Below, one piece after another: positions 1,654-63,633 of a stretch of DNA of 64,000 nt. A program made the translations under genes and the position numbers. Origin of the DNA: an uncultured bacterium (GTDB lineage: Bacteria; Patescibacteriota; Minisyncoccia; Moranbacterales; GWC2-37-73); NCBI GenBank assembly GCA_903851135.1, contig CAINNK010000012.1:4282-68281 (forward strand). Reading direction: 5' to 3'. Every line of letters starts with the position of its first letter. Position 1 is the first letter of the stretch. The notes beneath the pieces were generated by a model. It saw only the letters and a list, made by a program, of their open reading frames with translations, had not been told where the DNA came from and did not search any database.

Positions 1654-4389
1654 CTATATTTCTCCCCAATTGTCCCCAATTTTGATGTCGGCAACCAGAG
1701 GCACGCGAAGTTGGTAGGCGTTTTCCATGAGCTGCTTGATTTCTTGGGCGATACTTTCAGCTAATTGACTTTTAACTTCAAAAATAATTTCATCATGGAC
1801 TTGCAAAATCATGTGAACATCGGGATTGTTTGCAAATTTGGCTGCAGTGTTGATCATGGCTATTTTCATGATGTCAGCAGTGAGGCCCTGGATAGGCATG
1901 TTGATGGCCATGCGTTCGGCGCCGGCGGCTACTTGAAAATTTGGCGAATTGATTTCAATCAGATTTCGTCTGCGTCCGAGCAGGGTTTCCACATATCCAT
2001 TAGTGCGTGCAAACTCCCGAGTTTCTTTCATATAACTAGCCACTCCGGAAAACTTTTCCATGTAGGCATTGATGAAATTTTGGGCGTCATTGCGAGCGAT
2101 GCCAGCGGATTGCGAAAAGCCGAAAGAACTCATGCCATAGATGATGCCGAAATTGAGAGCCTTGGCAGCCGAACGCATTTTTTCCGTGACTTGCGAGATG
2201 GTGACGTTGTTGATTTGGGCCGCAGTGATTTTGTGAATGTCATCGCCGCGATGAAAAGCTTCAATCAGTTTTTTGTCATTGCTAACGTGAGCCACGCAGC
2301 GCAAATCGATTTGAGAATAATCAGTGCTGATCAGCTTGCAATTTTCACTAGCCACAAAAGCGGTGCGCAAAAGTTGGCCGAGCTCAGTTTTGATGGGAAT
2401 GTTTTGCAGGTTTGGCTCGGTGGAAGAAAGTCGGCCAGTGGCAGTGACGGCTTGATTAAAAGTGGTGTGAATGTGAGAATTTTCATCCAGCAATTTTGGA
2501 ATTGCGTCGAGATAAGTCGTTTTTAATTTGAAAAGTTCGCGATATTGTTCGATTTTTTCAATAATCTCATGTGACGAGCGCAGTTTTTCCAGTTCAGCTG
2601 AAGCGGTCGAAAGTCCTTTTTTGGTTTTTTTGATGTCATTGGTTGGCAAGCCCATCACTGAAAAAAGAATTTCGGAAAGTTGCGAAGGAGAATTGATGTT
2701 AAAATCTCGACCAGCTAATTCGTGAATGGATTTTTCCAAGTGTTTAATGGTTTTGGTGATCTTTTCAGAAATGCCTTGAAAAATGATAGGGTTAAGCTCG
2801 ATGCCAGCAAGTTCCATGTCAGCCAAAATTTTCAGTAGCGGCATTTCCATTTGGGTGAAAATCGTTTCCAATGTTCCGTTAGTCAGGTCTGTTTTTTTCT
2901 GCTGCTCGCTGATTTCCAAAATTCTTTTCTCTAGAGTTGTCTTTAATTTCAAAACGTAGTCAGCTTTTTGGCAGAAAAGCAGTTTGGCATTTTCTTCTTC
3001 TTCGGGATCTGCGACGAGAGAAAGTTGGCCTTTGGATTTTTTTTCAAAAACAATTTCTTCGCCAAGTTCGGAAAAAATTATTTTTTCCAATTCCAATTTT
3101 CGTCCCGGATCCAAAACATAGGCAGCCAGCATGGAGTCCCAGCCCAGGGCTGGTCCGCCTTTGGCCGAGAAATCACCCAAATTTAAATTTATGTCGACAG
3201 CTTTTAGTTGCTTGTAAATCGTCTTTAGGTCATAGCCAACTTTTTGAATAACTGAATTTTCCAAAATATTTTTCAGTTGCGAAAAATATTTTTCTGAAGT
3301 TTCAAAAAAAGCGGCGCGGCCAGTTTTCCAAGATATTGCAATTCCAGAAATTTTTTCCTCATTTGTCTCGATGGCAATTGAAATTTCAGCAGCGCTTTCA
3401 ATTTCTTTCAATACTTCAATTTCATTTTTTTCATCAACAATAAAATATTTGAAATCTTTCACACCATTATTATCCGTATTTTTCTTGTCTATCTCTGTGT
3501 TTTCTCCGTTCGGAAGTCTTTTGATAAGACTGAAAAAATTTAGCTCGCTGAAAAGTTTCACGATGGTTTCGCGATTGAAATCATGAAGCACGGCTTTTTC
3601 CAGCTCAAGTTGCACTGGCGCGTCCAAGGAAATGGTGGCTAGTTCTTTGCTGAGATAAGCTTGAACTTTGTCACGCTCAAGCTTTTCCTTCACCGCACCT
3701 TTAATTTCCTCAATATTTGCATAGACGCCATCCAGCGTGGAATATTTTTGCAGCAGGGTGACAGCGGTTTTTTCACCGATGCCTTTGACGCCAGGAATGT
3801 TGTCTGATGGATCGCCTCGCAGAGCTTTGTAGTCAATGATTTGTGCCGGCGTTAGTCCATAACGCTCAAAAACTTTTTCGCTGTCATACATCACTGAATC
3901 GCTGAGGCCTCGGCGCATGGTATAGACACTAGTGGTGTCATTGACCAACTGTAAGGTGTCCATATCACCAGTGACGATGATGGTTTCAACATCCTCTTTG
4001 TTTTGTTTAATTTGGGTTGCAATTGTGCCAATCACATCGTCAGCCTCAAAGCCAGCTTGCTCATAAATTGGAATATTAAATGCTCTGACAACTTCTTTGA
4101 CGCGCGGAATTTGAGCATAAAGTTCATCGTCGCCTTTAACGCGAGTGGCCTTATATTCCTCGAATTTTTCATGACGAAAAGTCTTGCCTGCTAAATCGAA
4201 AGAAGCCACGACGTAGTCCGGCTGAAATTCGGCAATCACGCTGAGCAGAGTCGAGGCAAAGCCATAAACCGCATTGACCAATTCACCTTTCTTGGTCGTA
4301 AATGGTGGCAGCGCATGGTAGGCCCGATGAATGATGGCGTTGCCATCAATGAGAATGAGTTTTTTTGAATTTTTTGTGTTTTTTTCCAT
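1654..4389 (-). CDS. polA: DNA polymerase I
   Basis: N-terminal 5'-3' exonuclease region (LILIDGNAIIHRAYHA), polymerase motifs DYSQIDLRCVAH, RSAAKALNFGIIYGMS, LQVHDE; likely start is the second Met (MEKNTKN..) at 4389 rather than 4434. Confidence 0.95.
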   Translation of the reverse strand: MEKNTKNSKKLILIDGNAIIHRAYHALPPFTTKKGELVNAVYGFASTLLSVIAEFQPDYVVASFDLAGKTFRHEKFEEYKATRVKGDDELYAQIPRVKEVVRAFNIPIYEQAGFEADDVIGTIATQIKQNKEDVETIIVTGDMDTLQLVNDTTSVYTMRRGLSDSVMYDSEKVFERYGLTPAQIIDYKALRGDPSDNIPGVKGIGEKTAVTLLQKYSTLDGVYANIEEIKGAVKEKLERDKVQAYLSKELATISLDAPVQLELEKAVLHDFNRETIVKLFSELNFFSLIKRLPNGENTEIDKKNTDNNGVKDFKYFIVDEKNEIEVLKEIESAAEISIAIETNEEKISGIAISWKTGRAAFFETSEKYFSQLKNILENSVIQKVGYDLKTIYKQLKAVDINLNLGDFSAKGGPALGWDSMLAAYVLDPGRKLELEKIIFSELGEEIVFEKKSKGQLSLVADPEEEENAKLLFCQKADYVLKLKTTLEKRILEISEQQKKTDLTNGTLETIFTQMEMPLLKILADMELAGIELNPIIFQGISEKITKTIKHLEKSIHELAGRDFNINSPSQLSEILFSVMGLPTNDIKKTKKGLSTASAELEKLRSSHEIIEKIEQYRELFKLKTTYLDAIPKLLDENSHIHTTFNQAVTATGRLSSTEPNLQNIPIKTELGQLLRTAFVASENCKLISTDYSQIDLRCVAHVSNDKKLIEAFHRGDDIHKITAAQINNVTISQVTEKMRSAAKALNFGIIYGMSSFGFSQSAGIARNDAQNFINAYMEKFSGVASYMKETREFARTNGYVETLLGRRRNLIEINSPNFQVAAGAERMAINMPIQGLTADIMKIAMINTAAKFANNPDVHMILQVHDEIIFEVKSQLAESIAQEIKQLMENAYQLRVPLVADIKIGDNWGEI

Positions 4390-49426: not shown

Positions 49427-49566
49427 GATTGTCTTTTATTGTCTAAGAAAAGAAGTTTTTTTCTTGAGACTTTAGCAAAAATCAAATTCAAAACAAAAAC
49501 AAAAGAGCATTTTTCTTTAAATATGCTCTTTTGTTTTTGTTTTGTTTTATTGCTATAATTAGGCTT

Positions 49567-50691
49567 ATGGATAATAAAAATTCAGTTTCGCACAATCTTG
49601 AAAAGCATGGTCAAATTGAGCATGGCGACTTTTTGCAGTCTCAACCCTGGCGAAAATTCCAAGAAAATACCGGCAAAAAAACATTTCAGCTGGAAAGTGA
49701 GGGTTTTTCGGTTGTTCTCATTCAACATGTTTTACCAATGGTAGGGAAATATTTCTATGCACCCAGGGGACCAATAGCCTCACTTGAAGGCGAGGAATTT
49801 CCAATTTCCAACTCGTCTGCCGACGAGGCAGGTTTTCAATTTCCAACCAATGGACAAAATCCAAAATTCAAAAATAATATAAAAAAGGGGATGCGGGATT
49901 TGGTTGAATTGGCTAAAAAAGAAAAAGCGGGATGGATTAGAGTTGAACCGGAAAATGAGGAAAGTCTGGAATATGCAAGGGATGTGCTTGAAGAAATCCG
50001 CCCAAGGCGGACTGATTACAGAATTGTTAAAGCTCCGCATGACATGCAGCCAAGAGAAATTTTTGTGGTGGATATTTCAAAGTCAGCCCAGCAGCTGTTG
50101 GCTGAAATGAAAAGCAAGACGCGATATAATATTGGAATTGCCCAAAAGAAAGGAGTAGTTGTTCATGCTGGTAACAAAGAAGAGTATATTGAAGCATTTT
50201 TGAAATTAACGAAAGAAATGGCAGCCAGACACGGAATTACAGCCCATCCGGAGCAATATTATTTAAAGATGATTGAAAGTTTACCAGCTGAGATGCTTAA
50301 AATTTATGTGGCGCAGTTTGAAGGAAAAATCATTGCAGCTAATCTGGTTTTATTTTTTGGAAAGACTGCAACCTATTTGCACGGCGCGTCGGGCAATGAA
50401 AATCGCAACGTGATGGCCCCTTTTTTGTTGCAATGGCAAGCAATGCTGGACGCGAAAGAATTGGGTTTTGAAAAATATGATTTCGGAGGGATCTCTACGA
50501 ATTACGAACCAGGTACGAATGTACGAATTACAAATAGAAACTCTTCATGGAGCGGAATTACTGATTTTAAATTAGGTTTTTCGCCACAGACCTTGCCGGT
50601 TGAATTTCCAGGAAGTTATGATATAGTGGTTAATCCAAGGAAATATGGAGCCTATAGGATATTACAGAAATTAAAAATGATTTTTCATTGA
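49567..50691 (+). CDS. FemAB-family peptidoglycan peptide-bridge transferase (FemX-like)
   Basis: TATAAT box just upstream of ATG 49567 (MDNKNS); Fem-type acyltransferase features incl. LQWQAMLDAKELGFEKYDFGG. Confidence 0.75.
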   Translation: MDNKNSVSHNLEKHGQIEHGDFLQSQPWRKFQENTGKKTFQLESEGFSVVLIQHVLPMVGKYFYAPRGPIASLEGEEFPISNSSADEAGFQFPTNGQNPKFKNNIKKGMRDLVELAKKEKAGWIRVEPENEESLEYARDVLEEIRPRRTDYRIVKAPHDMQPREIFVVDISKSAQQLLAEMKSKTRYNIGIAQKKGVVVHAGNKEEYIEAFLKLTKEMAARHGITAHPEQYYLKMIESLPAEMLKIYVAQFEGKIIAANLVLFFGKTATYLHGASGNENRNVMAPFLLQWQAMLDAKELGFEKYDFGGISTNYEPGTNVRITNRNSSWSGITDFKLGFSPQTLPVEFPGSYDIVVNPRKYGAYRILQKLKMIFH

Positions 50692-55743: not shown

Positions 55744-55845
55744 ATTAAAATTTAAAAATCAAAAATTAAAATTATGGAGTCCTGTTTTGCAGGACAAAAT
55801 CCTTAAATTTTTCATTTTGAAATTTACATTTTCCATTTTTATCAT
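55744..55845. repeat. AT-rich inverted-repeat element with central GC hairpin (third family member)
   Basis: AAATTTAAAAATCAAAAATTAAAATT..AGTCCTGTTTTGCAGGAC..TTGAAATTTACATTTTCCATTTTTATCAT. Confidence 0.45.
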
Positions 55846-56344
55846 GCAATGGAAAACCCCCAAAAACACTGACAAATATCATTGGACGGCGCACGTGACT
55901 GAAAAGATGCATTATTATGGTCTTTCCGAGCAAAAAGTTTTGGGCGTGATCAGAAATCCCAAGAGAACTGAAACGGGCATTGCTGAAAATACGGTGGCGG
56001 TAATGTTGCCGGTGGGCTCAATTAAAAAAGGAAACGCCAAGCCAAAGTGGGGCAGACCAGTTTTTGGCGATTTTAATAATGAGCAAGAAAATTCTGAAGA
56101 AAAAAATGAAAAGGAAAGTTGGAATCAAGAAATTTGGGTGATGTACCAAATAAAATGTAAAAATCAAAAATCAAAAATCAAAATTTCAATTCAAAATAAA
56201 AATTTAGAAAAGCTTCAAAAACAAATTAATTCAAATAAGCAGTTAATTATCATTTCTGCTTGGCGGTATCCTGGAGTCAGCCCTAAAAATAATCCGATTC
56301 CGGAGGAGATTTTGAGGGAGCTTGAAGAAATTTCATGGAAATAA
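55844..56344 (+). CDS. hypothetical protein (start moved to internal Met after the repeat element)
   Basis: MQWKTPKNTDKYHWTAHVTE..; contains low-complexity (AAAATCA)n-encoded KNQKSKIK stretch. Confidence 0.4.
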   Translation: MQWKTPKNTDKYHWTAHVTEKMHYYGLSEQKVLGVIRNPKRTETGIAENTVAVMLPVGSIKKGNAKPKWGRPVFGDFNNEQENSEEKNEKESWNQEIWVMYQIKCKNQKSKIKISIQNKNLEKLQKQINSNKQLIIISAWRYPGVSPKNNPIPEEILRELEEISWK

Positions 56345-56469
56345 GCCTGGAGCTTATTGGTTGCTCATTTTCTAAAAAGTGGTAAAATATAAATACAAGG
56401 AAAGTGATAATATTATATGGTAAATTAATCAGTTTTCAATATCTTAATTTAATTTTAAATCACAAATTT

Positions 56470-57000
56470 ATGTCAGAAACAAAACATGAGGAAAAAAAGG
56501 ATTCGCAGCACAAAGCGCAAGGTAGTTCAGATATCAAGAGTCTTTTGTCTCAACTCGAGGCATTGTTAGATGAGTATATGGTGAAAAAAGCACCGTTTAC
56601 TTTGCCGAAAGACGCCAAGGAATTTATTGCCAAGGTCTCGCCATATTTGATAATCATTTTTGCAATTATGGCTCTGTCGTTTATATTCTTCACGCTTGGT
56701 CTTTCTGCCTTTGTTGCGCCATTTGCAATGATGGGCGGTTATGGTTACGGACTTGGCTTAAGTTGGAGTTTTGGCACAATTATTGCATTGGTAGTTTCTA
56801 TTATCTCTGTTGTCATTGAATTGATGGCTGTGCCAGGCTTGTTTAAACGCACTAAGAGTTCATGGAGGTTGCTTTTTTATGCCAGCATTGTTAGTTTGAT
56901 CGGAGGTATTCTGTCCATAAATGGTCTCGTTGGCGCAATTATCGGCGCAATTATTGGTTGGTATATCTTGTTTCAAGTTAAAGAACTTTACAAAAAATAG
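56470..57000 (+). CDS. hypothetical membrane protein
   Basis: MSETKHEEKK start; 3-4 TM helices with Gly-rich loops. Confidence 0.45.
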   Translation: MSETKHEEKKDSQHKAQGSSDIKSLLSQLEALLDEYMVKKAPFTLPKDAKEFIAKVSPYLIIIFAIMALSFIFFTLGLSAFVAPFAMMGGYGYGLGLSWSFGTIIALVVSIISVVIELMAVPGLFKRTKSSWRLLFYASIVSLIGGILSINGLVGAIIGAIIGWYILFQVKELYKK

Positions 57001-57022
57001 CATTCAATGCGCTTTTTCCAGT

Positions 57023-57047
57023 AAAAACAGGCCTTGGGCCTGTTTTT
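57023..57047 (+). terminator. rho-independent terminator
   Basis: AAAAACAGGCCTTGGGCCTGTTTTT. Confidence 0.75.
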
Positions 57048-57178
57048 ACTTTTTGAAACAAGTTTTTTGCAGAGTTGATTTTTTTGTTTTAATATGAGAA
57101 CATAAAGTGTAATTAATGATTCAAAAGATTTGAAAGAACATGCTTAAATGAGCTTTCAAGGTCTTAAATTCAAACAAT

Positions 57179-58645
57179 ATGGTGAAAAAAACAAAAATCG
57201 TGGCAACTTTGGGTTTGGTTTCTGACACTAAAGAAACTTTGCGAGCGATGATTGAAAATGGCATGAACGTGGCGAGACTTAATTTTTCCCATGGCGATCA
57301 TGAGTGGCACGGAAAAGCAATTAAAACTATTCGAGAGTTGTCGGCTGAAATGAATGTGCCAATTGGAATTTTGGGTGACCTGCAGGGACCACGTATCAGG
57401 ACAATGATGGAAGCTCCGATTGAAATCAAAACTGGGGAGTTTATTTTGATCAGTGACGTTGCTAAGGCTCCAAATTTTCAATTTCCAATTTCCAGCTTCC
57501 AAACAATTTCCAATGAACAAATTTCTAGTGATAAGAAGTTGACTTTAGATGCTGGCAACATTGTCGATGATATTGAAGTGGGACATGAGATTTTGATTGA
57601 GGACGGGCTAATGAAGTTGGTGGTGCGCGAAAAAAATGGCGGTGTGATGCTGGGCGAGGTAATTGATGGTGGCACAGTGAAGAATCGCAAGGGAGTTAAT
57701 GTGCCAGATTCACAACTTAAAATCAGCGCCGTGACCGAGAAAGATGAGCGAGATTTGAAATTTTTGATGGAAAATGAAGTTGATTTTATTGGGCTTTCTT
57801 TTGTTGGCTCAGGCGAGGACGTGGAATATTTGCGAGGAAAAATGAAAGAATTTTTGGGAAGAGAGGATAATTTGCCCCAGATCATTGTCAAAGTTGAACG
57901 CAAAGAAGCCATCAAAAACTTGGATGATATTATCGCTAAGACTGATGCAGTCATGGTGGCGCGCGGAGATTTGGGCATTGAAATTGAAGGTACGCGAGTT
58001 GCGGTTTTGCAAAAAGAAATTGTCAAAAAAAGTTTGCAGCACATGAAGCCAGTGATTGTGGCTACTCAAATGCTAGATTCAATGATTGTTAATCCTCGTC
58101 CAACTCGCGCAGAAATTTCCGATGTGACCAATGCCGTGGTTGATCACGCTGACGCTGTGATGCTTTCCGGGGAAAGCGCCGGCGGAAAATATCCGGTGGA
58201 AAGTGTACGCACCATGCGAGATATCATTCAGCACACTGAAGCTTCACCATTTGATGATGTGACGCATTTGCTGGAGCTTGATGGCAATGATGATTTCAAA
58301 AATTTAGTCAAAAGCGCTTTCAGTTTGGCAAGAAATAGTGAATCAAAGGCTATTGTTTTGGCTAGTGTTTCAGGATTTACGGCCAGAATGATGTCACACT
58401 TTAGATCTGAAAAACCACTTTTCGTGGCAACGAACAATGAAAAGACTTATCACCAATTGGCACTGGTTTGGGGAGCTCAGCCATATTTCACCCAGGAAAA
58501 AGAATTGTCAAAAGTTTTGGAAGAAATGATTGACTATCGCAAAAGTACTGGAGAGTTGAAAGATGGAGACAAAGTCATCGCCATCTTTGGCAGTGCCCAT
58601 GATAACAAAGAAAAGATGCAGTTGGTGGGAGTGAAAACAATCTAA
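57179..58645 (+). CDS. pyk: pyruvate kinase
   Basis: KTKIVATLGLVSDTKETLRAMIENGMNVARLNFSHGDHEWH, MVARGDLGIEI, C-terminal regulatory domain. Confidence 0.95.
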   Translation: MVKKTKIVATLGLVSDTKETLRAMIENGMNVARLNFSHGDHEWHGKAIKTIRELSAEMNVPIGILGDLQGPRIRTMMEAPIEIKTGEFILISDVAKAPNFQFPISSFQTISNEQISSDKKLTLDAGNIVDDIEVGHEILIEDGLMKLVVREKNGGVMLGEVIDGGTVKNRKGVNVPDSQLKISAVTEKDERDLKFLMENEVDFIGLSFVGSGEDVEYLRGKMKEFLGREDNLPQIIVKVERKEAIKNLDDIIAKTDAVMVARGDLGIEIEGTRVAVLQKEIVKKSLQHMKPVIVATQMLDSMIVNPRPTRAEISDVTNAVVDHADAVMLSGESAGGKYPVESVRTMRDIIQHTEASPFDDVTHLLELDGNDDFKNLVKSAFSLARNSESKAIVLASVSGFTARMMSHFRSEKPLFVATNNEKTYHQLALVWGAQPYFTQEKELSKVLEEMIDYRKSTGELKDGDKVIAIFGSAHDNKEKMQLVGVKTI

Positions 58646-58746
58646 GAATATATGTAGAATGTATTATGTAGAAAGTATAAAGTATGGCATTTTGTAATTA
58701 TGTATTTATACATAATACCTTATACAAAATACATGATACTAGTAAC

Positions 58747-58817
58747 GGAGGGGTCGCAGTGTGGGCCGGATGTGAGCAAGTACGAGCATTCGGCGGGTCA
58801 CAAAAGTGACCCAGGCA
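58747..58817 (+). other. tRNA-like 5' fragment (GGAGGGGTCGCAGTGTGG) fused to a structured repeat; homologous to 59427..59478
   Basis: first 18 nt mimic the tRNA-Ser 5' end; followed by hairpins GCCGGATG..CATTCGGC and GGGTCAC aaaa GTGACCC; GATGYGAG-AAKTACGAGCATTC...CCCAGGC shared with region after the tRNA. Confidence 0.45.
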
Positions 58818-58904
58818 AAAATTTAAAACCATTTTTTGTGGAGGCTTTGCCGACATATGAAGTATTGAATTTTTGAGTGCACCATGCAAATTCAGTTTCA
58901 AAGT

Positions 58905-58968
58905 GGAGGAGTCGCATAGTGGTCGAGTGCACCACCTTGTTCGCCCAAGGCGGATGCGCCTTGGGCGC
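58905..58968 (+). pseudogene. tRNA-Ser 5'-half fragment (acceptor, D-arm, anticodon-stem 5' strand) ending in anticodon loop, then unrelated 11-bp hairpin
   Basis: GGAGGAGTCGCATAGTGGTCGAGTGCACCACCTTG is 32/35 identical to positions 1-35 of the intact tRNA at 59310; followed by CGCCCAAGGCG gat CGCCTTGGGCG. Confidence 0.6.
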
Positions 58969-58985
58969 AGAAAGGTACCAATTAT

Positions 58986-59252
58986 ATGTTTTATATTTAT
59001 ATTATTTACAGTAAAAAACTGAATAAGAAATATATTGGATATTGTGAGAATCTAAAAAATAGAGTTAAGGAGCATAACAATGGAGAATCCAAATTTACTT
59101 CAAGAGGCGTTCCTTGGAGCCTGGTTTATTATCAAGTTTTTTTAAGTGAAGCTGATGCGCGTAACGAGGAAAGATTTTTGAAATCTGGAAAAGGAAGGGA
59201 TAGATTGAAATTCTTATTAAATGATACAATGAATAAAATCAAGCAATTTTAA
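58986..59252 (+). CDS. GIY-YIG nuclease family small protein (YhbQ/UPF0213-like)
   Basis: MFYIYIIYSKKLNKKYIGYCENLKNRVKEHNNG ... W.LVYYQVF..EADARNEERFLK. Confidence 0.8.
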   Translation: MFYIYIIYSKKLNKKYIGYCENLKNRVKEHNNGESKFTSRGVPWSLVYYQVFLSEADARNEERFLKSGKGRDRLKFLLNDTMNKIKQF

Positions 59253-59309
59253 TATTATTTTTGTCTGTTTGTGGTTACTATCTAATGAAATAATACATTA
59301 AAGTAATTT

Positions 59310-59399
59310 GGAGAGGTCGCATAGTGGTCTAGTGCACCACCTTGGAAAGGTGGCATACTGTAAAAGGTATCGGGGGTTCAAATCCCCCTCTCTCCTCCA
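59310..59399 (+). tRNA. tRNA-Ser (anticodon GGA), class II with long variable arm, CCA encoded
   Basis: acceptor GGAGAGG/TCTCTCC, D-stem GCA/TGC, anticodon stem CCACC/GGTGG loop TTGGAAA, variable arm, T-arm GGGGG TTCAAAT CCCCC, 3' TCCA. Confidence 0.85.
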
Positions 59400-59498
59400 A
59401 ATTCAAAAATGTGAAAGGGGATTAGAAGGGCGCGAGTGGGATGCGAGGAATACGAGCATTCTGTGTGTAGCGCCCAGGCTTCGAGTCGGAGCGAGAAG

Positions 59499-59517
59499 AA
59501 ATCCCCCTCTCTCCTCA
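59499..59517 (+). other. duplicated tRNA-Ser 3'-end fragment (T-stem 3' strand plus acceptor 3' strand)
   Basis: AAATCCCCCTCTCTCCTCA, 100 nt downstream of the intact tRNA, preceded by the repeat homologous to 58765..58817. Confidence 0.55.
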
Positions 59518-59672
59518 ATGAAGTTAAGAAAGAGAGCAAGCAAATGATTTTGCTTGTGTGGGGATTTGAACGCCGGAGCATATTTTTATCAGTGGATGAA
59601 AATGCGAGGCGGTGGTGCGAATATAAAAATAAATTATATTTAAAATTGTTCCAATCTTTATTTATAAAGAAT

Positions 59673-60740
59673 ATGAGTATAGAACAACCCAATTTTACTC
59701 CACAGTTTGAGAAAAAAAATGAAATCAAGGAAGCAGAAAAGCAACGCACCTACGCCGAAGTCCAGGCGGAAGTCAGTTCATTTCAGAAGCAATTTGGAGA
59801 AATGCAAAGTGAAATTAGAAAAACTCTGGAACTAGGGCAGATACCAGACGATGAGTATGAAAAAGTCCAATTGAGAAGAAAATTAGTGGAGGAAAAATAC
59901 GGGCAACTTATAGAAGAATTCACAACGTCTATGCAACGAGAGGCTGAGATTAACCGCACTCGTTACGAAAATGATTTTTTGACAACGTTGCCTCCCGAAA
60001 GAAGAAAATTAATAGAAAACCAAATAAGGGAAATATATAATAGTCATCCATTGTGGCATGGCACTGGAAAATCACGCTATACTTCGATTGGAGCATCGAA
60101 ATATGAAGGCATAGATCATGGCAAAGAGATAACGCAAGTATTGAGAAAAATTTTACAAGAAGGCATAGTGCCAGCCTACGATCCTTACGCAGAGCAATCA
60201 ATTGGAACACCAAAAAGTACTTCGCTCACAAAGCAAAGAATGCTAGCCAGGGCATTTTCTGATGTCAGCCTAGCAAAGGGCGATGAATTAAAGTTTACAT
60301 ACGGTGCTACTCTTTATTGGCATTCTCTATTATTGTTGAGGCAGGAAAAATTGGAAGAAATTTTACAGGGTAAGCCCAGCACCACAAAGCAGACCCAACT
60401 TTGGATTAATGATACGAACAATGAGACCATCATTATGGACGGTAGTGATGTTATTGAGACTTTGAGAAAAACGCGCTCAACCATTAAGGATAATTTTCCA
60501 GTTATTTTCGGGATTGATCCAATTAAAATTGTAACCAAAGATCTTAAAAAAATTGATATCAGTGCGGAAACTGAGATACGATCAATTGAGCCTATCCCAG
60601 TAGCGGCATTTACTCATATTGAAGTTCCTTGGAAAAATTTGGAAGAAGTGGAAGCATTGCTTAAAGAATTAAACATTGATTTGCCTGTCATTCCCATTGA
60701 GGAGGGAGAGCGGTGGATGAGTTATCATAAAGTTCAATAA
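59673..60740 (+). CDS. hypothetical protein (355 aa)
   Basis: start at MSIEQPNF; the upstream part of the track ORF overlaps tRNA-derived repeats. Confidence 0.45.
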   Translation: MSIEQPNFTPQFEKKNEIKEAEKQRTYAEVQAEVSSFQKQFGEMQSEIRKTLELGQIPDDEYEKVQLRRKLVEEKYGQLIEEFTTSMQREAEINRTRYENDFLTTLPPERRKLIENQIREIYNSHPLWHGTGKSRYTSIGASKYEGIDHGKEITQVLRKILQEGIVPAYDPYAEQSIGTPKSTSLTKQRMLARAFSDVSLAKGDELKFTYGATLYWHSLLLLRQEKLEEILQGKPSTTKQTQLWINDTNNETIIMDGSDVIETLRKTRSTIKDNFPVIFGIDPIKIVTKDLKKIDISAETEIRSIEPIPVAAFTHIEVPWKNLEEVEALLKELNIDLPVIPIEEGERWMSYHKVQ

Positions 60741-60792
60741 AGATTGCTCTATTCTTTTATCCTTTTGAAGCACAGTGCATAGCCATTTTGTG

Positions 60793-60844
60793 TAACTTTA
60801 TAAAGTTTGCAATTATTGACAAACTTTATAAAGTTTGATAATAT
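60793..60844 (+). promoter_or_regulatory. promoter TTGACA-17-TAATAT with two copies of perfect palindrome AAACTTTATAAAGTTT (one filling the spacer)
   Basis: taACTTTATAAAGTTTg caattaTTGACA AACTTTATAAAGTTTGA TAATAT tggggc ATG; -10 ends 6 nt before the start codon. Confidence 0.65.
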
Positions 60845-60850
60845 TGGGGC

Positions 60851-61774
60851 ATGAATACTCAAGACAAGCTCAAAATCATTCAAAAGCTTTCAGGACTGAC
60901 TCAAACTGAAATTGCTGCCAAGGTAGGCGTGTCTTTTGTGGCGTTTAACAATTGGTGGAATGAAAAAGCTAAACCGAGAAAGAAACAAGTTGAGGCGATT
61001 GATGAGCTGTATCGGCTTTATACAGGACAAAAAGAAATTCCAGCAAGTGTTTTGGCTTCTAAAAAACAACTTTTACAAAAAAGATCAACAAGATTCAAAA
61101 GTGTGATTGAGGTGATTTTGAAAAATTCTGACATCTATGATCAGTTTTTATTGTCGCTGACCTATAATTCCAACAAGATTGAAGGTTCAACGCTTTCTGA
61201 GGACGAAACAGCGGACATTATTTTCAATAATAAATCGATTCCTAATAAAAGTATCATTGAACAACTTGAGGTCAAGAATCATCAAGCTGCGTTGCAATAT
61301 CTTTTTCAGTACCTCAAAAATTCCAAGAAAATTAATGAGGAGCTGATTTTGAAACTGCATAGCATCTTGATGAATGGAATCAGGGAGGATGCAGGCATGT
61401 ATCGAAATCACGGTGTGCGCATTGTGGGGTCAAATGTTCCAACTGCCAATTTTTTGAAAGTGCCAGTGTTAATGAAGGACATTGTTGAAAAGATAAGTCA
61501 AAAGAAAAAAGACGAAGTTGAACATATTTCTCAAATTCATGCCAGTTTCGAGCAAATTCATCCTTTTTCTGATGGTAATGGTCGGGTTGGCAGAATGATT
61601 TTAACAGCGATGCTTTTGAAAAGCAATTTTGCGCCAGCCGTCATCAAGCAAGAAGAAAAGCAAATCTATTATGCGTGCTTGCGCAAGGCGCAGCTTCAGG
61701 ATGATTCAACTCAATTGGAAGATTTCATTTGTGAAGCTGTTGAATTTGGATTTGAAATTATCGAGAGGAAATAA
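60851..61774 (+). CDS. Fic family protein with N-terminal XRE-type HTH domain (class II inhibitory motif present)
   Basis: HTH LSGLTQTEIAAKVGVSFVAFNNWWNEKAKP; inhibitory YNSNKIEGSTLS; Fic motif HPFSDGNGRVGRM. Confidence 0.8.
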   Translation: MNTQDKLKIIQKLSGLTQTEIAAKVGVSFVAFNNWWNEKAKPRKKQVEAIDELYRLYTGQKEIPASVLASKKQLLQKRSTRFKSVIEVILKNSDIYDQFLLSLTYNSNKIEGSTLSEDETADIIFNNKSIPNKSIIEQLEVKNHQAALQYLFQYLKNSKKINEELILKLHSILMNGIREDAGMYRNHGVRIVGSNVPTANFLKVPVLMKDIVEKISQKKKDEVEHISQIHASFEQIHPFSDGNGRVGRMILTAMLLKSNFAPAVIKQEEKQIYYACLRKAQLQDDSTQLEDFICEAVEFGFEIIERK

Positions 61775-61857
61775 ATAATTACCAATTAATATTTTTTCCA
61801 ATTGCGTTTTAGTAAAAATGTTATTTAATTGGATTAATTATTGTCTAGTTAAATTTT

Positions 61858-62625
61858 ATGCCAGAATTACCAAAAAATACTTTTTATGATGTCAACAAAT
61901 TTCCAGCCGTGGAGGGCATGTTGGTATTCCCGATTTCCATGAGCAGGATTAGTAATGAATCTCAAAATGCTAAAAAATATTGGCAGTATCTTGAACACAT
62001 AAATCCAAATAAAATAAACAAAAATGTGCCCAACTCTAAAGTTGGTGCAATATTTGTGTATGGTGATTATCTTTATTTGTATTCAGATGAAAAAGCCGGC
62101 ACCTTGAAGCGAAGATATATGGACTTGGTGGCTTCTCACAAAAATTCATTTGGCAATTTATTAAAAGGTGACCCGCATCTGATTAGCGATAGTATTTCTT
62201 ACAAAGTATGGAATCAACTTTATTTGGATTGCGACAAATTCGTCTTTTATCTTGATAGTCTTAAAAAAATTTATGACGAAGATGAAAAATTCCAGAGTTA
62301 TATAAAAAAAGATTTTGAAAAATTGGATAATCCAAAAAGATTATTGGATGAAAATCAATTATGTTTTTTTCTTGAAGAACATTTGATGTTGTATCTCATA
62401 GCCAAAGGTCAAATGAAACTAGAAAACAGCTTTATCAATGGTCATGAGAAATGGATATTAGTGGCTTATCCCGGCAAACCCTTAAAAGCCCATGTCTATC
62501 TGCATCAGAAGAATTTTTTTAATTTGGATAATCCTCAAAATGCCTATCAAAACTCTTGGTATGATTTAGAAGGCAAAAAACTTTACGATTTCAATCGTAT
62601 TGATCTGGAAACGTTTGATCTTTAA
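61858..62625 (+). CDS. hypothetical protein
   Basis: 255-aa ORF; no motif. Confidence 0.45.
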   Translation: MPELPKNTFYDVNKFPAVEGMLVFPISMSRISNESQNAKKYWQYLEHINPNKINKNVPNSKVGAIFVYGDYLYLYSDEKAGTLKRRYMDLVASHKNSFGNLLKGDPHLISDSISYKVWNQLYLDCDKFVFYLDSLKKIYDEDEKFQSYIKKDFEKLDNPKRLLDENQLCFFLEEHLMLYLIAKGQMKLENSFINGHEKWILVAYPGKPLKAHVYLHQKNFFNLDNPQNAYQNSWYDLEGKKLYDFNRIDLETFDL

Positions 62626-62672
62626 ATGTAGTTTGCACATAAAGCAAATATCACACTTTACAATTTAAAAAT

Positions 62673-62996
62673 ATGGCAACCAAACAAGCAACCGTCGATT
62701 ATATTTTGGATCAGTTAGCATCTTTGAATGGTGTGCACGCTCGCAAAATGTTTGGGGAATATGCGCTCTACTTCGACGGGAAAGTGGTGGGTCTGATTTG
62801 CGATGACACGCTTTTTGTCAAAATCACTGAGGGCGGCAAGCAATTTGTCGGCGGCTTTTATCAGGAAGGTTTTGCCTATCCCGGCGCCAAGGCTTCAGTG
62901 GAAATTTCCGGAGACCTGCTTGAGGATCATCGTTGGCTCTGCGAACTTATTCTGATCACCGCTAGTGAGTTGCCATTGCCAAAAAAGAAAAAATAA
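62673..62996 (+). CDS. TfoX/Sxy N-terminal domain protein
   Basis: ARKMFGEYALYFDGKVVGLICDDTLFVKI matches the TfoX_N pattern (MFGGxxLYxDGxhFAhhxDDxLYLK). Confidence 0.7.
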   Translation: MATKQATVDYILDQLASLNGVHARKMFGEYALYFDGKVVGLICDDTLFVKITEGGKQFVGGFYQEGFAYPGAKASVEISGDLLEDHRWLCELILITASELPLPKKKK

Positions 62997-63025
62997 AAAT
63001 TGAATATATTTTGTGAAATAAAAAT

Positions 63026-63055
63026 AAGGCAGAACATTGGATATGTTCTGCCTTT
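63026..63055. terminator. bidirectional hairpin terminator
   Basis: AAGGCAGAACAT tggat ATGTTCTGCCTTT. Confidence 0.65.
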
Positions 63056-63063
63056 AACCGTTT

Positions 63064-63633
63064 TTACTTTTTCATTGCGAAGCGGTAAGCATCGATAATG
63101 AAAAGTAAGGATGCTAATTGCTGTGCGGCAAGCATTGGGAAACCTTGGTTGGCTGTCAGCCATGCACATGAGATATGCATTGCGATATACCAGAGGTAAC
63201 CGTTCGCATTTTTCTTTGCAAGAAAGTATGTTCCTGCAAGGAAAGTGCTGGCCAGCACTATTTCTAACCACTGACTAAGGCTCCTAAATCCTCCAAGGTC
63301 ATAGATGCTATAACCTAAGCCTAGGACTATAGCGACTATTGAAAGACGATCCAGTAGCTTGTAAGCCTTGCTACTACCTTTCAAAGCAGTAATAATTCCA
63401 AGTACGATACTTGGAACGGCACTTGATTCCAGGCAAGCTGCGATCCAATCGTGACGAATCACGAATAGAATTACCCAAGCTGGCAAACCTATCAAGCAAG
63501 CTAGCCAAGAAGCAACACGCAGCCACTTCTTTAAATCTTTACTACCGCTTTTCTCTGCTCGCTCAGAAAGCGAAAAGAGAATTTTATTGAGGAGATAAAA
63601 AACTCCTCCCAATATCTGCAATAACGCTTCCAT
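63064..63633 (-). CDS. hypothetical multi-pass membrane protein
   Basis: 5-6 hydrophobic helices. Confidence 0.45.
   Translation of the reverse strand: MEALLQILGGVFYLLNKILFSLSERAEKSGSKDLKKWLRVASWLACLIGLPAWVILFVIRHDWIAACLESSAVPSIVLGIITALKGSSKAYKLLDRLSIVAIVLGLGYSIYDLGGFRSLSQWLEIVLASTFLAGTYFLAKKNANGYLWYIAMHISCAWLTANQGFPMLAAQQLASLLFIIDAYRFAMKK

Follow-up and report, generated by a model that had tools for sequence, protein, structure and literature searches.

How does the only tRNA gene in a long stretch of bacterial DNA come to stand among broken copies of itself, with a small nuclease gene set between the fragments and the intact gene? The question is raised by 64,000 nucleotides (nt) of an uncultured Moranbacteria genome (Patescibacteria, or candidate phyla radiation, CPR), a stretch that we call the window throughout. 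The single tRNA gene found in it, a tRNA-Ser(GGA) at 59310-59399 (ARAGORN; Rfam tRNA, 54.3 bits), is preceded by a gene for a stand-alone GIY-YIG nuclease of 88 amino acids (aa), and partial tRNA copies, which we call relics, lie on both sides. A preliminary description had read these fragments as scars of site-specific integration, with the nuclease gene as a passenger. The comparisons described here give that gene another standing: tRNA-linked mini GIY-YIG loci very probably constitute a family of mobile cassettes.

Organization of the locus

Judging from its parts, the locus is a series of nested insertions stacked in the tRNA-Ser(GGA) gene of this genome. The 1027-nt region is 100% identical in five independent assemblies, each over the portion that it covers, and for that reason it is not an assembly artefact. 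The core unit, 58905-59399 on the plus strand, is made of five successive parts: a relic of tRNA-Ser nt 1-35 that stops in the anticodon loop (relic (ii), 58905-58939); a 30-nt module of two 15-nt GC palindromes, ttCGCCcaaGGCGga + tGCGCCttgGGCGCa, without assigned strand (module M, 58940-58969); a continuation of the relic, tRNA nt 36-42 (gaaaggt, 58970-58976); the GIY-YIG gene (58986-59252), whose product is Slx1/UPF0213-like (PF01541, E 4e-14); and an intact tRNA-Ser(GGA) of the GIY-YIG-associated allele, which would have been imported. The spacer between the GIY-YIG stop codon and the tRNA (59253-59309) has its counterpart in a gap of -15 to +20 nt in most related loci. These parts, like all other features given below, lie on the plus strand unless otherwise stated.

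The five items that the preliminary description had listed (two 5' fragments, the GIY-YIG gene, the intact tRNA and a downstream segment with a tRNA 3' end) were all recovered where it had placed them, by ARAGORN, Rfam, a repeat finder and Pfam. Relic (ii) was found by the repeat finder, and also by BLAST, as a 36-nt copy (58904-58939) with 92% identity to the window tRNA; it matches 33 of 36 positions of that tRNA, and 34 of 35 positions of the native allele at the empty site of a relative (L094, described below). Its end had been placed at nt 35. Direct reading shows instead that the tRNA homology restarts past the 30-nt module, with nt 36-42, and then ends; the perfect hairpin noted earlier behind the 35-nt copy is module M itself.

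A tRNA fragment that ends in the anticodon loop, upstream of a GIY-YIG open reading frame (ORF), recalls a self-splicing intron, of group I or another type, that carries a homing endonuclease ORF, all the more as GIY-YIG ORFs are common in group I introns and the protein matches TIGR01453 weakly, short of the cut-off of that model (E 4e-4). Nevertheless, an Rfam scan of the locus, both at gathering threshold and at E ≤ 10, returned tRNA only, with no group I intron (Intron_gpI), transfer-messenger RNA (tmRNA) or other family, an intact and uninterrupted tRNA follows, only about 140 nt of non-coding sequence lie outside the ORF, and at other loci it is the D or the T loop that is broken. Within the reach of sequence analysis, an intron is refuted; we leave it virtually no chance, in line with the preliminary description, which had already thought it unlikely. 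Weak matches to the Rfam families sX4, RtT and permuted tmRNA, far under threshold, were caused by the tRNA.

The same chromosomal site in related genomes

Syntenic relatives were found through homologues of the upstream neighbour pyk (pyruvate kinase; 77-95% identity), and six related contigs were read. In one of them (L094, pyk 77%) the site is empty: pyk is followed by a native tRNA-Ser(GGA) that is intact, and relic, module and GIY-YIG gene are all absent. Two others have the core unit only, as relic 1-35, module M, gaaaggt, GIY-YIG gene and tRNA (L091, pyk 90%) or as relic 1-35, module M, GIY-YIG gene and tRNA (L088, pyk 81%). Downstream of pyk, then, L091, L088 and the window carry the cassette and L094, L090, L092 and L093 lack it, which is the presence/absence pattern of homing endonucleases. 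The tRNA fragments are insertion scars at a tRNA gene, as had been proposed, and the site is polymorphic among relatives; since an empty-site variant exists, the arrangement is not a conserved ancestral one. An exact-match metagenome scan for empty sites, made with the tRNA sequence, returned the same strain only (L089).

The intact tRNA of the window shares 97-99% identity with the GIY-linked tRNAs of L091 and L088 and only 88% with the native L094 allele. Because it matches the GIY-linked alleles, and relic (ii) the native one, the functional tRNA probably arrived with the cassette. Furthermore, the cassette shares 89-97% nucleotide identity with those of L091 and L088, against only 78-80% for the adjoining pyk, which points to a more recent shared ancestry of the cassette.

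The three remaining contigs bear on the upstream part of the locus. Relic (i), detected by the repeat finder as an 18-nt 5'-like tRNA piece (58747-58764), stands at the start of the original gene and corresponds to tRNA-Ser nt 1-18 of the native allele (12/12 against the L094 tRNA). In its D-loop lies module X (58765-58816; fold z = -3.7), a double hairpin composed of hairpin A (58766-58793), hairpin B (58795-58812) and then AGGC. It is followed by an AT-rich spacer (58817-58904), attributed to an older, protein-less tRNA-replacement unit and 90-95% identical to spacers of L090 and L093, where its counterparts stand before an imported tRNA, without a GIY-YIG gene. L090 (pyk 95%) begins like the window, with relic (i), X and the spacer, and continues with a second relic, also with X, an imported tRNA and a native 3' relic; in L093 (pyk 79%), relic 1-20, a double hairpin, the spacer and an imported tRNA are followed by a native 3' relic that starts at nt 39 and whose T loop contains a double hairpin; and L092 (pyk 86%) has two successive units of X, spacer and tRNA nt 1-20 before the tRNA. 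None of the three has a GIY-YIG gene, and the imported tRNAs of these X-type units are of another sequence type. Module X is kept in L090 and L092, where hairpin B has changed in a compensatory manner (GGGTCAC/GTGACCC against GGGTTTC/GAAACCC). The comparison at the pyk site is direct evidence of presence/absence, of repeated insertion, of tRNA replacement without a protein, and of the independence of X units from the GIY unit.

Recurrence of the cassette

Relatives of the mini-gene were sought in one genome per species, where at least 496 were found; the closest 80 were kept, and the tRNA association described here holds for that subfamily. The resulting set comprises 91 homologous mini-genes in 83 loci of Patescibacteria and some Bacteroidota. 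A same-strand tRNA adjoins 78 of the 91: in 61 the gene ends between -45 and +150 nt before the tRNA, and in 17, more distant homologues, it begins at most 150 nt after it. The other 13 include five genes at the end of a contig and three that are upstream copies in tandem arrays. The tRNAs located downstream are mostly the four Ser isoacceptors, but also Thr, Tyr, Asp, Met, Arg, Trp and Lys. An exact 11-mer of the tRNA 5' relic occurs at most 200 nt upstream in 33 of the 61 genes, and an exact 3' relic downstream of the tRNA in 12 of the 61 loci; the reversed-tRNA control gave 0 in both cases. The nearest protein neighbour shares the same anticodon in 37 of 78 cases (permutations: mean 7.7, maximum 21), an excess which suggests that the mini-genes are specialised by target tRNA.

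Individual loci reproduce the plan in detail. In L005, tRNA-Ser(GGA) nt 1-35 is followed by a near-identical hairpin, the GIY-YIG gene and an intact tRNA, behind which come an inverted hairpin and an 18-nt copy of the 3' end; in L006, a 14-nt 5' fragment of tRNA-Ser(GCT) with hairpins is followed by the GIY-YIG gene and the tRNA; two genes of this kind are found in L007, one at tRNA-Thr and one at tRNA-Ser(CGA); and the Bacteroidota members (L074, L082) follow the same plan with other hairpins. The GIY-YIG gene is not the passenger for which it had been taken but the hallmark of a recurrent cassette.

Could the mini GIY-YIG protein be instead a host factor devoted to tRNA genes, in processing, in repair, in the protection of highly transcribed tRNA DNA or in the cleavage of co-transcribed RNA, and not selfish at all? 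The relics and hairpins would then be by-products of local recombination or expression signals. The gene is indeed always co-oriented with the tRNA, and the two often overlap (gaps of -15 to +20 nt), which suggests co-transcription; its catalytic residues are conserved; and fusions between prokaryotic Slx1-like domains and a tRNA methyltransferase were read by the authors who described them as a hint of a role in RNA metabolism (PMC1564403). Yet its presence varies at the same site among close relatives, tandem and multiple copies exist (L007, L008, L012, L051, L078), different genomes have different tRNAs occupied, a dead tRNA fragment goes with each copy, and genomes resemble each other more in the cassette than in the adjoining pyk. 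We regard such a host role as highly improbable.

Several loci show further rearrangements. In L008 (507-1152), two tandem units of relic 1-14, module and GIY-YIG gene, 323 nt long, are 100% identical, as might result if the unit had re-inserted very recently, from unequal crossover or from the assembly; the two units of L078 are distinguished by nested hairpin insertions. In L007 (3258-3447), just downstream of the GIY-YIG gene, a complete tRNA-Ser(CGA), flanked by 13-bp inverted repeats (CCCCGTTAGAAAA / TTTTCTAACGGGG), interrupts the anticodon loop of a second tRNA-Ser(CGA)-like gene that is complete in all other respects. Finally, relics of L082 (324-400 and 747-811) and L020 (1394-1451) carry a hairpin, TCCCGAC...GTCGGGA, in place of the whole anticodon arm and of similar size; these are genomes of two distant phyla, one of Chitinophagaceae and one of Magasanikbacteria.

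The double-hairpin modules

Module M occurs once in the window, against 0 occurrences expected by chance. In the related loci, 55 of the 61 genes have a module at most 120 nt before their start codon, its end 8-39 nt away from that codon. The modal length is exactly 30 nt, as two 15-nt palindromes with consensus TCCGCCCAAGGCGGA + CCCGCCTTGGGCGGG, and the points of insertion, after tRNA nt 12-14, 20-23, 34-36 or 57-58, correspond to the D, anticodon and T loops, with tRNA sequence running on for about 6 nt past the module. There are 134 GC-rich palindromes of 15 nt in the loci, compared with about 12 in shuffles, and 82 of them lie at most 100 nt upstream of a GIY-YIG start codon. Among 25 modules, 7 of 12 stem pairs have changed on both sides, with 43 such cells versus 11.8 in shuffles; since the modules were gathered with a palindrome finder, their 100% pairing is partly a matter of construction. 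The modules thus consist of paired GC-rich hairpins that are kept despite sequence variation, as in small palindromic mobile repeats (REP/MITE-like). An identical 30-mer at tRNA-Tyr (L053) and at tRNA-Ser(TGA) (L051) implies that the module is part of the travelling unit and not of its target.

This behaviour invites a reversal of roles, in which the double-hairpin modules (M, X and related ones) would be the primary mobile agents, tiny non-autonomous palindromes that enter hairpin loops, whether of tRNA genes or of other modules. In trans, the Slx1-like GIY-YIG protein would serve as their structure-specific nuclease, binding the palindrome or cruciform and cutting about 6 nt away, and the tRNA duplications would be selected products of repair. 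Modules nested in the loops of other modules (L015, L019, L078) are what one would expect, as are solo modules in 3' relics (L005, L017, L093) and the single geometry, with insertion in a loop and a relic ending about 6 nt further on, that unrelated module sequences display with the GIY-YIG gene or without it (L092). Covarying stem positions with the palindrome retained, a solo 15-nt unit placed in frame in a protein gene of the window (49997-50011), and the fact that the closest solved relatives of the protein cut branched DNA tend in the same direction. On the other hand, GIY-YIG enzymes are hydrolases with no known strand transfer, so that insertion would still need host repair; the modules are not dispersed, the 64-kb window having one full module and one half unit; and M-type modules stand almost only beside a GIY-YIG start codon, where a cis element (an operator, a 5'-UTR (untranslated region) structure or a homology arm) fits equally well. 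We hold primacy of the modules to be unlikely.

In keeping with that distribution, the module units of the loci cluster beside GIY-YIG and tRNA genes, and the single additional unit of the window, a solo palindrome at 49997-50011, is identical to half of the M-module consensus (TCCGCCCAAGGCGGA); it occupies five codons, in frame, inside a 386-aa ORF (49531-50691) and may be a mini-insertion of the palindromic unit into coding sequence.

A minimal GIY-YIG protein

Pfam PF01541 covers residues 1-69 of the 88-aa protein (E 4.3e-14), and Y3, Y5, Y16, G18, R26, H30, E61 and E62, all the canonical GIY-YIG positions, are invariant among 14 homologues. Homologues of the protein are annotated as Candidatus Moranbacteria. 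An AlphaFold2 model (pLDDT 92.8) has the order strand-strand-helix-strand-helix-helix. In a profile search of the PDB, the closest structures were 1zg2 (BH0048, UPF0213; E 3.6e-6) and 1ywl (EF2693; E 3.2e-4), followed by SLX1, with a sequence identity to the UPF0213 structures of about 30% only. Foldseek, used with the predicted model, also placed 1zg2 first and gave Slx1 a TMq of 0.62-0.64 (rmsd about 2 Å), against a TM of 0.45-0.50 for the catalytic domain of I-TevI. The protein has a single domain, has no auxiliary domain and is nearest to BH0048, EF2693 and Slx1, as are members of the stand-alone Slx1-like/UPF0213 group; the two-domain architecture of I-TevI and Seg proteins is absent, all 88 residues being taken up by the catalytic fold plus one helix. 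As modelled, it is a minimal Slx1-like nuclease domain without a DNA-binding domain. A 2006 survey described the stand-alone bacterial Slx1-like class as a minimal, possibly ancestral GIY-YIG form of unknown function (PMC1564403).

Two other affiliations were considered. A phage origin of the cassette was rejected, since the GIY-YIG protein has no match in PHROG and no relatives in a collection of viral contigs; a defence role was set aside as well, the PADLOC match being marginal only (E 0.005). It may be added that many GIY-YIG ORFs (L006, L015, L016, L030, L035 and others) end 10-15 nt inside the tRNA, whose sequence supplies the stop codon, and that gene callers stretch some of them upstream through relic and hairpin (e.g., P0007, P0012); database proteins consequently contain translated tRNA or hairpin sequence at their ends.

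The proposed mechanism and what weighs against it

The recurrence of the layout, its geometry, the presence/absence polymorphism, the imported tRNA allele and the intact set of catalytic motifs are matters of observation. From these we infer a nuclease activity, its target and a pathway of copying, and we lean, with moderate confidence, towards a nuclease-stimulated, recombination-dependent copying (homing) of a cassette that brings its own tRNA. The cassette consists of the 30-nt GC-rich double-hairpin module, a GIY-YIG gene for 80-90 aa and a tRNA gene of the target type, or its 5' part, and it settles in a loop of the tRNA gene already present. What remains of the 5' part of that gene is a dead relic (nt 1 to p, the module, then about 6 nt more), sometimes together with a 3' relic, and the imported tRNA would make up for the destroyed one and keep the cell viable. 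The nuclease would break a cassette-free tRNA gene, or a DNA structure that this gene forms, and repair would copy the cassette from the donor, conserved tRNA sequence and relic serving as portable homology, as in free-standing homing. The relic would retain the native tRNA promoter, so that relic, module, GIY-YIG gene and tRNA are probably one transcript.

Applied to the window, this mechanism suggests a history of four events. An earlier protein-less unit (module X, spacer and tRNA) would have left relic (i); the GIY cassette would have come next, leaving relic (ii); a mirror-image unit at the 3' side (X') would have left the 3' relic; and a 2.3-kb segment bearing a Fic gene would have been inserted at the tRNA 3' end.

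Several points weigh against homing. The 88-aa protein, as modelled, has no DNA-binding domain, and its nearest structures are structure-specific nucleases (Slx1), not I-TevI, for which reason site-specific cleavage of tRNA genes is only a prediction. Over the part that both possess, regenerated tRNA and relic are usually identical, and no immunity to re-cleavage is visible. About 6 nt of target-derived sequence stand between the module and the gene, both derived from the cassette, and simple homing does not account for them. Many relics measure 12-14 nt, too short for RecA homology arms. Protein-less units of the same geometry exist in L090, L092 and L093, and hence the GIY-YIG gene is not needed in cis. 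Lastly, between the window and L093 the gene of the 255-aa protein (orf255) is also more conserved than pyk (90% vs 76%), so that the signal of a cassette younger than its flanks could come from mosaic recombination.

Two more conventional routes to the layout were tried and abandoned: no phasing of the unit makes the approximately 6 nt after the module a flanking target-site duplication, and a Campbell-type single crossover with a circular form, which would reproduce the layout, finds neither circular form nor recombinase in evidence.

The missing DNA-binding domain, the lack of visible immunity, the 6-nt gap and the protein-less units are what keeps alive the idea that the modules come first. 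Joined to the nuclease, that idea takes a broader form: the modules and the minimal Slx1-like GIY-YIG protein might together be a previously unrecognised mobile system that reads DNA shape and not sequence, a tentative proposal which we judge somewhat unlikely. Its targets would be the extrudable hairpin loops of tRNA genes and modules, cut about 6 nt from the insertion point; the broken tRNA would be rebuilt by templated duplication, and the protein-less units would be non-autonomous derivatives. If true, it would amount to structure-targeted DNA movement by a hydrolytic GIY-YIG enzyme, without transposase or recombinase.

The 3' side of the tRNA and the downstream genes

Downstream of the intact tRNA, its 3' end is copied exactly over 18 nt (59499-59516, repeat finder; source 59380-59397), within a 3' relic that runs from the T-loop to the 3' end of the tRNA (AAATCCCCCTCTCTCCTCA, 59499-59517). 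Module X' (59417-59498), identified by fold and alignment, is a structured insert in the T-loop of this relic, composed of an inverted T-arm piece (59417-59423), an outer stem (59428-33 with 59470-75) and a hairpin A' (59438-59463); its fold is no better than that of shuffles (z -1.7). Hairpin A' is homologous to hairpin A of module X, and it is the only hairpin common to X' and X. The direct repeat of roughly 55 nt that had been described here was overstated: there is a 24-nt hairpin core (21 identities, one gap; 0/2000 shuffles score as high) and a separate CCCAGGC, and the remainder of the two segments is not alignable.

No syntenic relative has a counterpart of X' (59417-59498) with its 3' relic. 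Inserts of the same design, with an inverted T-arm piece, a stem around a hairpin (GGGNNC...GNNCCC), AGG(A)C and a 3' relic from the T loop, are found downstream of tRNAs in L015, L060 and L074. The X' side is a mirror image of the 5' units, in the order new tRNA end, spacer, module, old relic. The window tRNA has a U discriminator, a G7-U66 wobble and an encoded CCA (59389-59399), and the near-identical tRNAs of L088 (2196-2207) and L091 (4541-4552), like the native L094 tRNA (4078-4089), have a G discriminator; its last 12 nt or so appear to have been swapped together with the X'/3'-relic unit. The possibility that relic (i) with X, or X' with the 3' copy, represents a second tRNA, a tmRNA, RNase P RNA or signal recognition particle RNA found no support from ARAGORN or Rfam.

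Beyond the relic, the segment 59518-61812 contains a 355-aa ORF (59673-60740) and an HTH-Fic gene (helix-turn-helix and Fic; 60851-61774) with no match in the syntenic relatives L088 and L090-L094. Synteny with L093 restarts at about 61813, which makes the segment a strain-specific insertion at the tRNA 3' end, outside the GIY cassette. Among the candidate defence families of PADLOC, PDC-S04 (E 9e-49) and SoFic (E 7e-33) are matched by the HTH-Fic protein. A 307-aa Fic gene also follows the GIY/tRNA-Ser(GCT) unit of L006. These genes had been regarded, with their neighbours, as possible cargo of a decayed island; only the 355-aa ORF and HTH-Fic are strain-specific, and TfoX_N and the 255-aa gene are conserved neighbours in L093 and L090.

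Integration by an integrase was the reading of the preliminary description. Partial tRNA copies would be attL/attR-type scars of islands, the GIY-YIG gene a passenger and the downstream genes decayed cargo; the exact 18-nt copy of the tRNA 3' end, the strain-specific 2.3 kb that come next and the large serine recombinase that abuts the 3' end of the same tRNA in L091 and L094 all agree with this. In integrase scars, the tRNA 3' end is duplicated around a kb-sized island. In the window, however, the 18-nt repeats enclose about 100 nt of structured non-coding DNA and no island; no tRNA copy stands at the far end of the 2.3-kb segment (about 61812); and no recombinase domain was detected in the neighbouring ORFs scanned (55787-63633), as the preliminary description had itself noted of an integrase, the recombinases of L091 and L094 lying outside the GIY unit. 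Moreover, the main duplications are 5' parts that begin at nt 1, are interrupted in a loop by a double-hairpin module and stand beside a GIY-YIG start codon, and the same layout recurs in dozens of unrelated genomes without an integrase nearby; nor are TfoX_N and the 255-aa gene cargo. For the 5' side, integrase scars are largely refuted already, and as an account of the whole locus we consider them improbable.

In L091 and L094 (4511-6049 and 4048-5574, minus strand), genes for large serine recombinases, with Resolvase, Recombinase and Zn_ribbon domains, touch the 3' end of this tRNA-Ser(GGA) or extend into it, and the flank further downstream is identical in the two. They mark a conventional integrated element, and that end is therefore also a conventional integration hot spot. 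Such integration is separate from the GIY unit and leaves the features of the locus unexplained. Further along the window, a terminator-like hairpin on the minus strand (59537-59556) is followed by an inverted T-arm-like piece, GGGGATTTGAAC (59560-59571), and, up to 59615, by GCCGGAGC...GCGAGGCGGTGG, which resembles an element downstream of the tRNA-Asp of L020 (GAACGCCGGAGC...GCGAGGCGGTGGC); 59537-59615 may be a third type of insert at a tRNA end.

Relation to known systems

Having weighed these alternatives, we return to the mobile cassette. The locus seems to behave like a free-standing homing endonuclease cassette, though outside the I-TevI/Seg architecture, and the nearest functional parallel is SegB of phage T4, a GIY-YIG homing endonuclease that recognises a tRNA T-arm motif and spreads with neighbouring tRNA genes (PMC2330249). 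In both cases a GIY-YIG nuclease gene lies among tRNA genes, the tRNA region of the recipient is replaced, and presence varies between related genomes. In contrast, SegB is a two-domain protein with a DNA-binding part, and the 88-aa protein is a catalytic domain only, structurally nearer to Slx1/UPF0213; Seg genes come from T4-like phages, whereas the cassettes are chromosomal in CPR bacteria and Bacteroidota, with no relatives found in viral contigs; and the cassettes leave tRNA relics interrupted by a conserved double-hairpin module, a trait that has not been described for Seg genes.

With integrative elements that target tRNA genes, the cassette shares the target, the partial copies left behind and the restoration of the gene by a part borne on the element. 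Those elements encode a recombinase, are kb-sized and usually have the 3' part duplicated at both ends; the cassette units have no recombinase, measure 0.1-0.5 kb, have breakpoints in any of three loops and are marked by hairpins. A polymorphic locus with a 5' tRNA fragment upstream of a mobile element is known from Caldiarchaeum, in an archaeal model of tRNA disruption (PMC3293823).

Parallels also come from organelles and cyanobacteria. The mitochondrial endonuclease ORF of Allomyces atp6 brings a partial replacement of its target gene and displaces the old part as a relic; double-hairpin elements, the GC clusters of yeast mitochondria and the small dispersed repeats of cyanobacteria have GC-rich double hairpins at element borders and nest in loops. 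They belong to other hosts and other target genes, the modules of the cassette do not occur scattered over the genome (the window has one full module and one solo 15-nt unit), and we know of no sequence homology between these elements and the cassette.

The best match of the protein, in sequence as in structure, is with the UPF0213 or stand-alone Slx1-like group (BH0048, 1zg2; EF2693, 1ywl; COG2827), which has the same single-domain size and fold. Its structures were produced by structural genomics in 2005. The literature searched holds no report tying the UPF0213 family to tRNA genes, relics or mobility. Likewise, full-text literature gave no description of tRNA-linked mini GIY-YIG genes with relics, subscription journals being covered in part, so that a prior description is possible. 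The cassette family thus appears to be common in CPR bacteria and, in the literature searched, undescribed. It would be a variant of the free-standing homing cassettes, and it could be a new kind of mobile system if the recognition of shape holds.

Implications for CPR genomes

If the cassette is what we propose, stand-alone bacterial Slx1-like (UPF0213-type) GIY-YIG proteins would receive a concrete biological context, and the 30-nt module with its fixed offset of about 6 nt would offer a direct route to the substrate of the enzyme. A selfish nuclease gene could occupy essential single-copy tRNA genes even in the tiny genomes of CPR bacteria, the host surviving by means of the replacement tRNA. 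In turn, the tRNA loci of these genomes would become graveyards of fragments by which tRNA annotation can be misled, and the horizontal movement of tRNA alleles may decouple the sequence of a tRNA from the phylogeny of its host.

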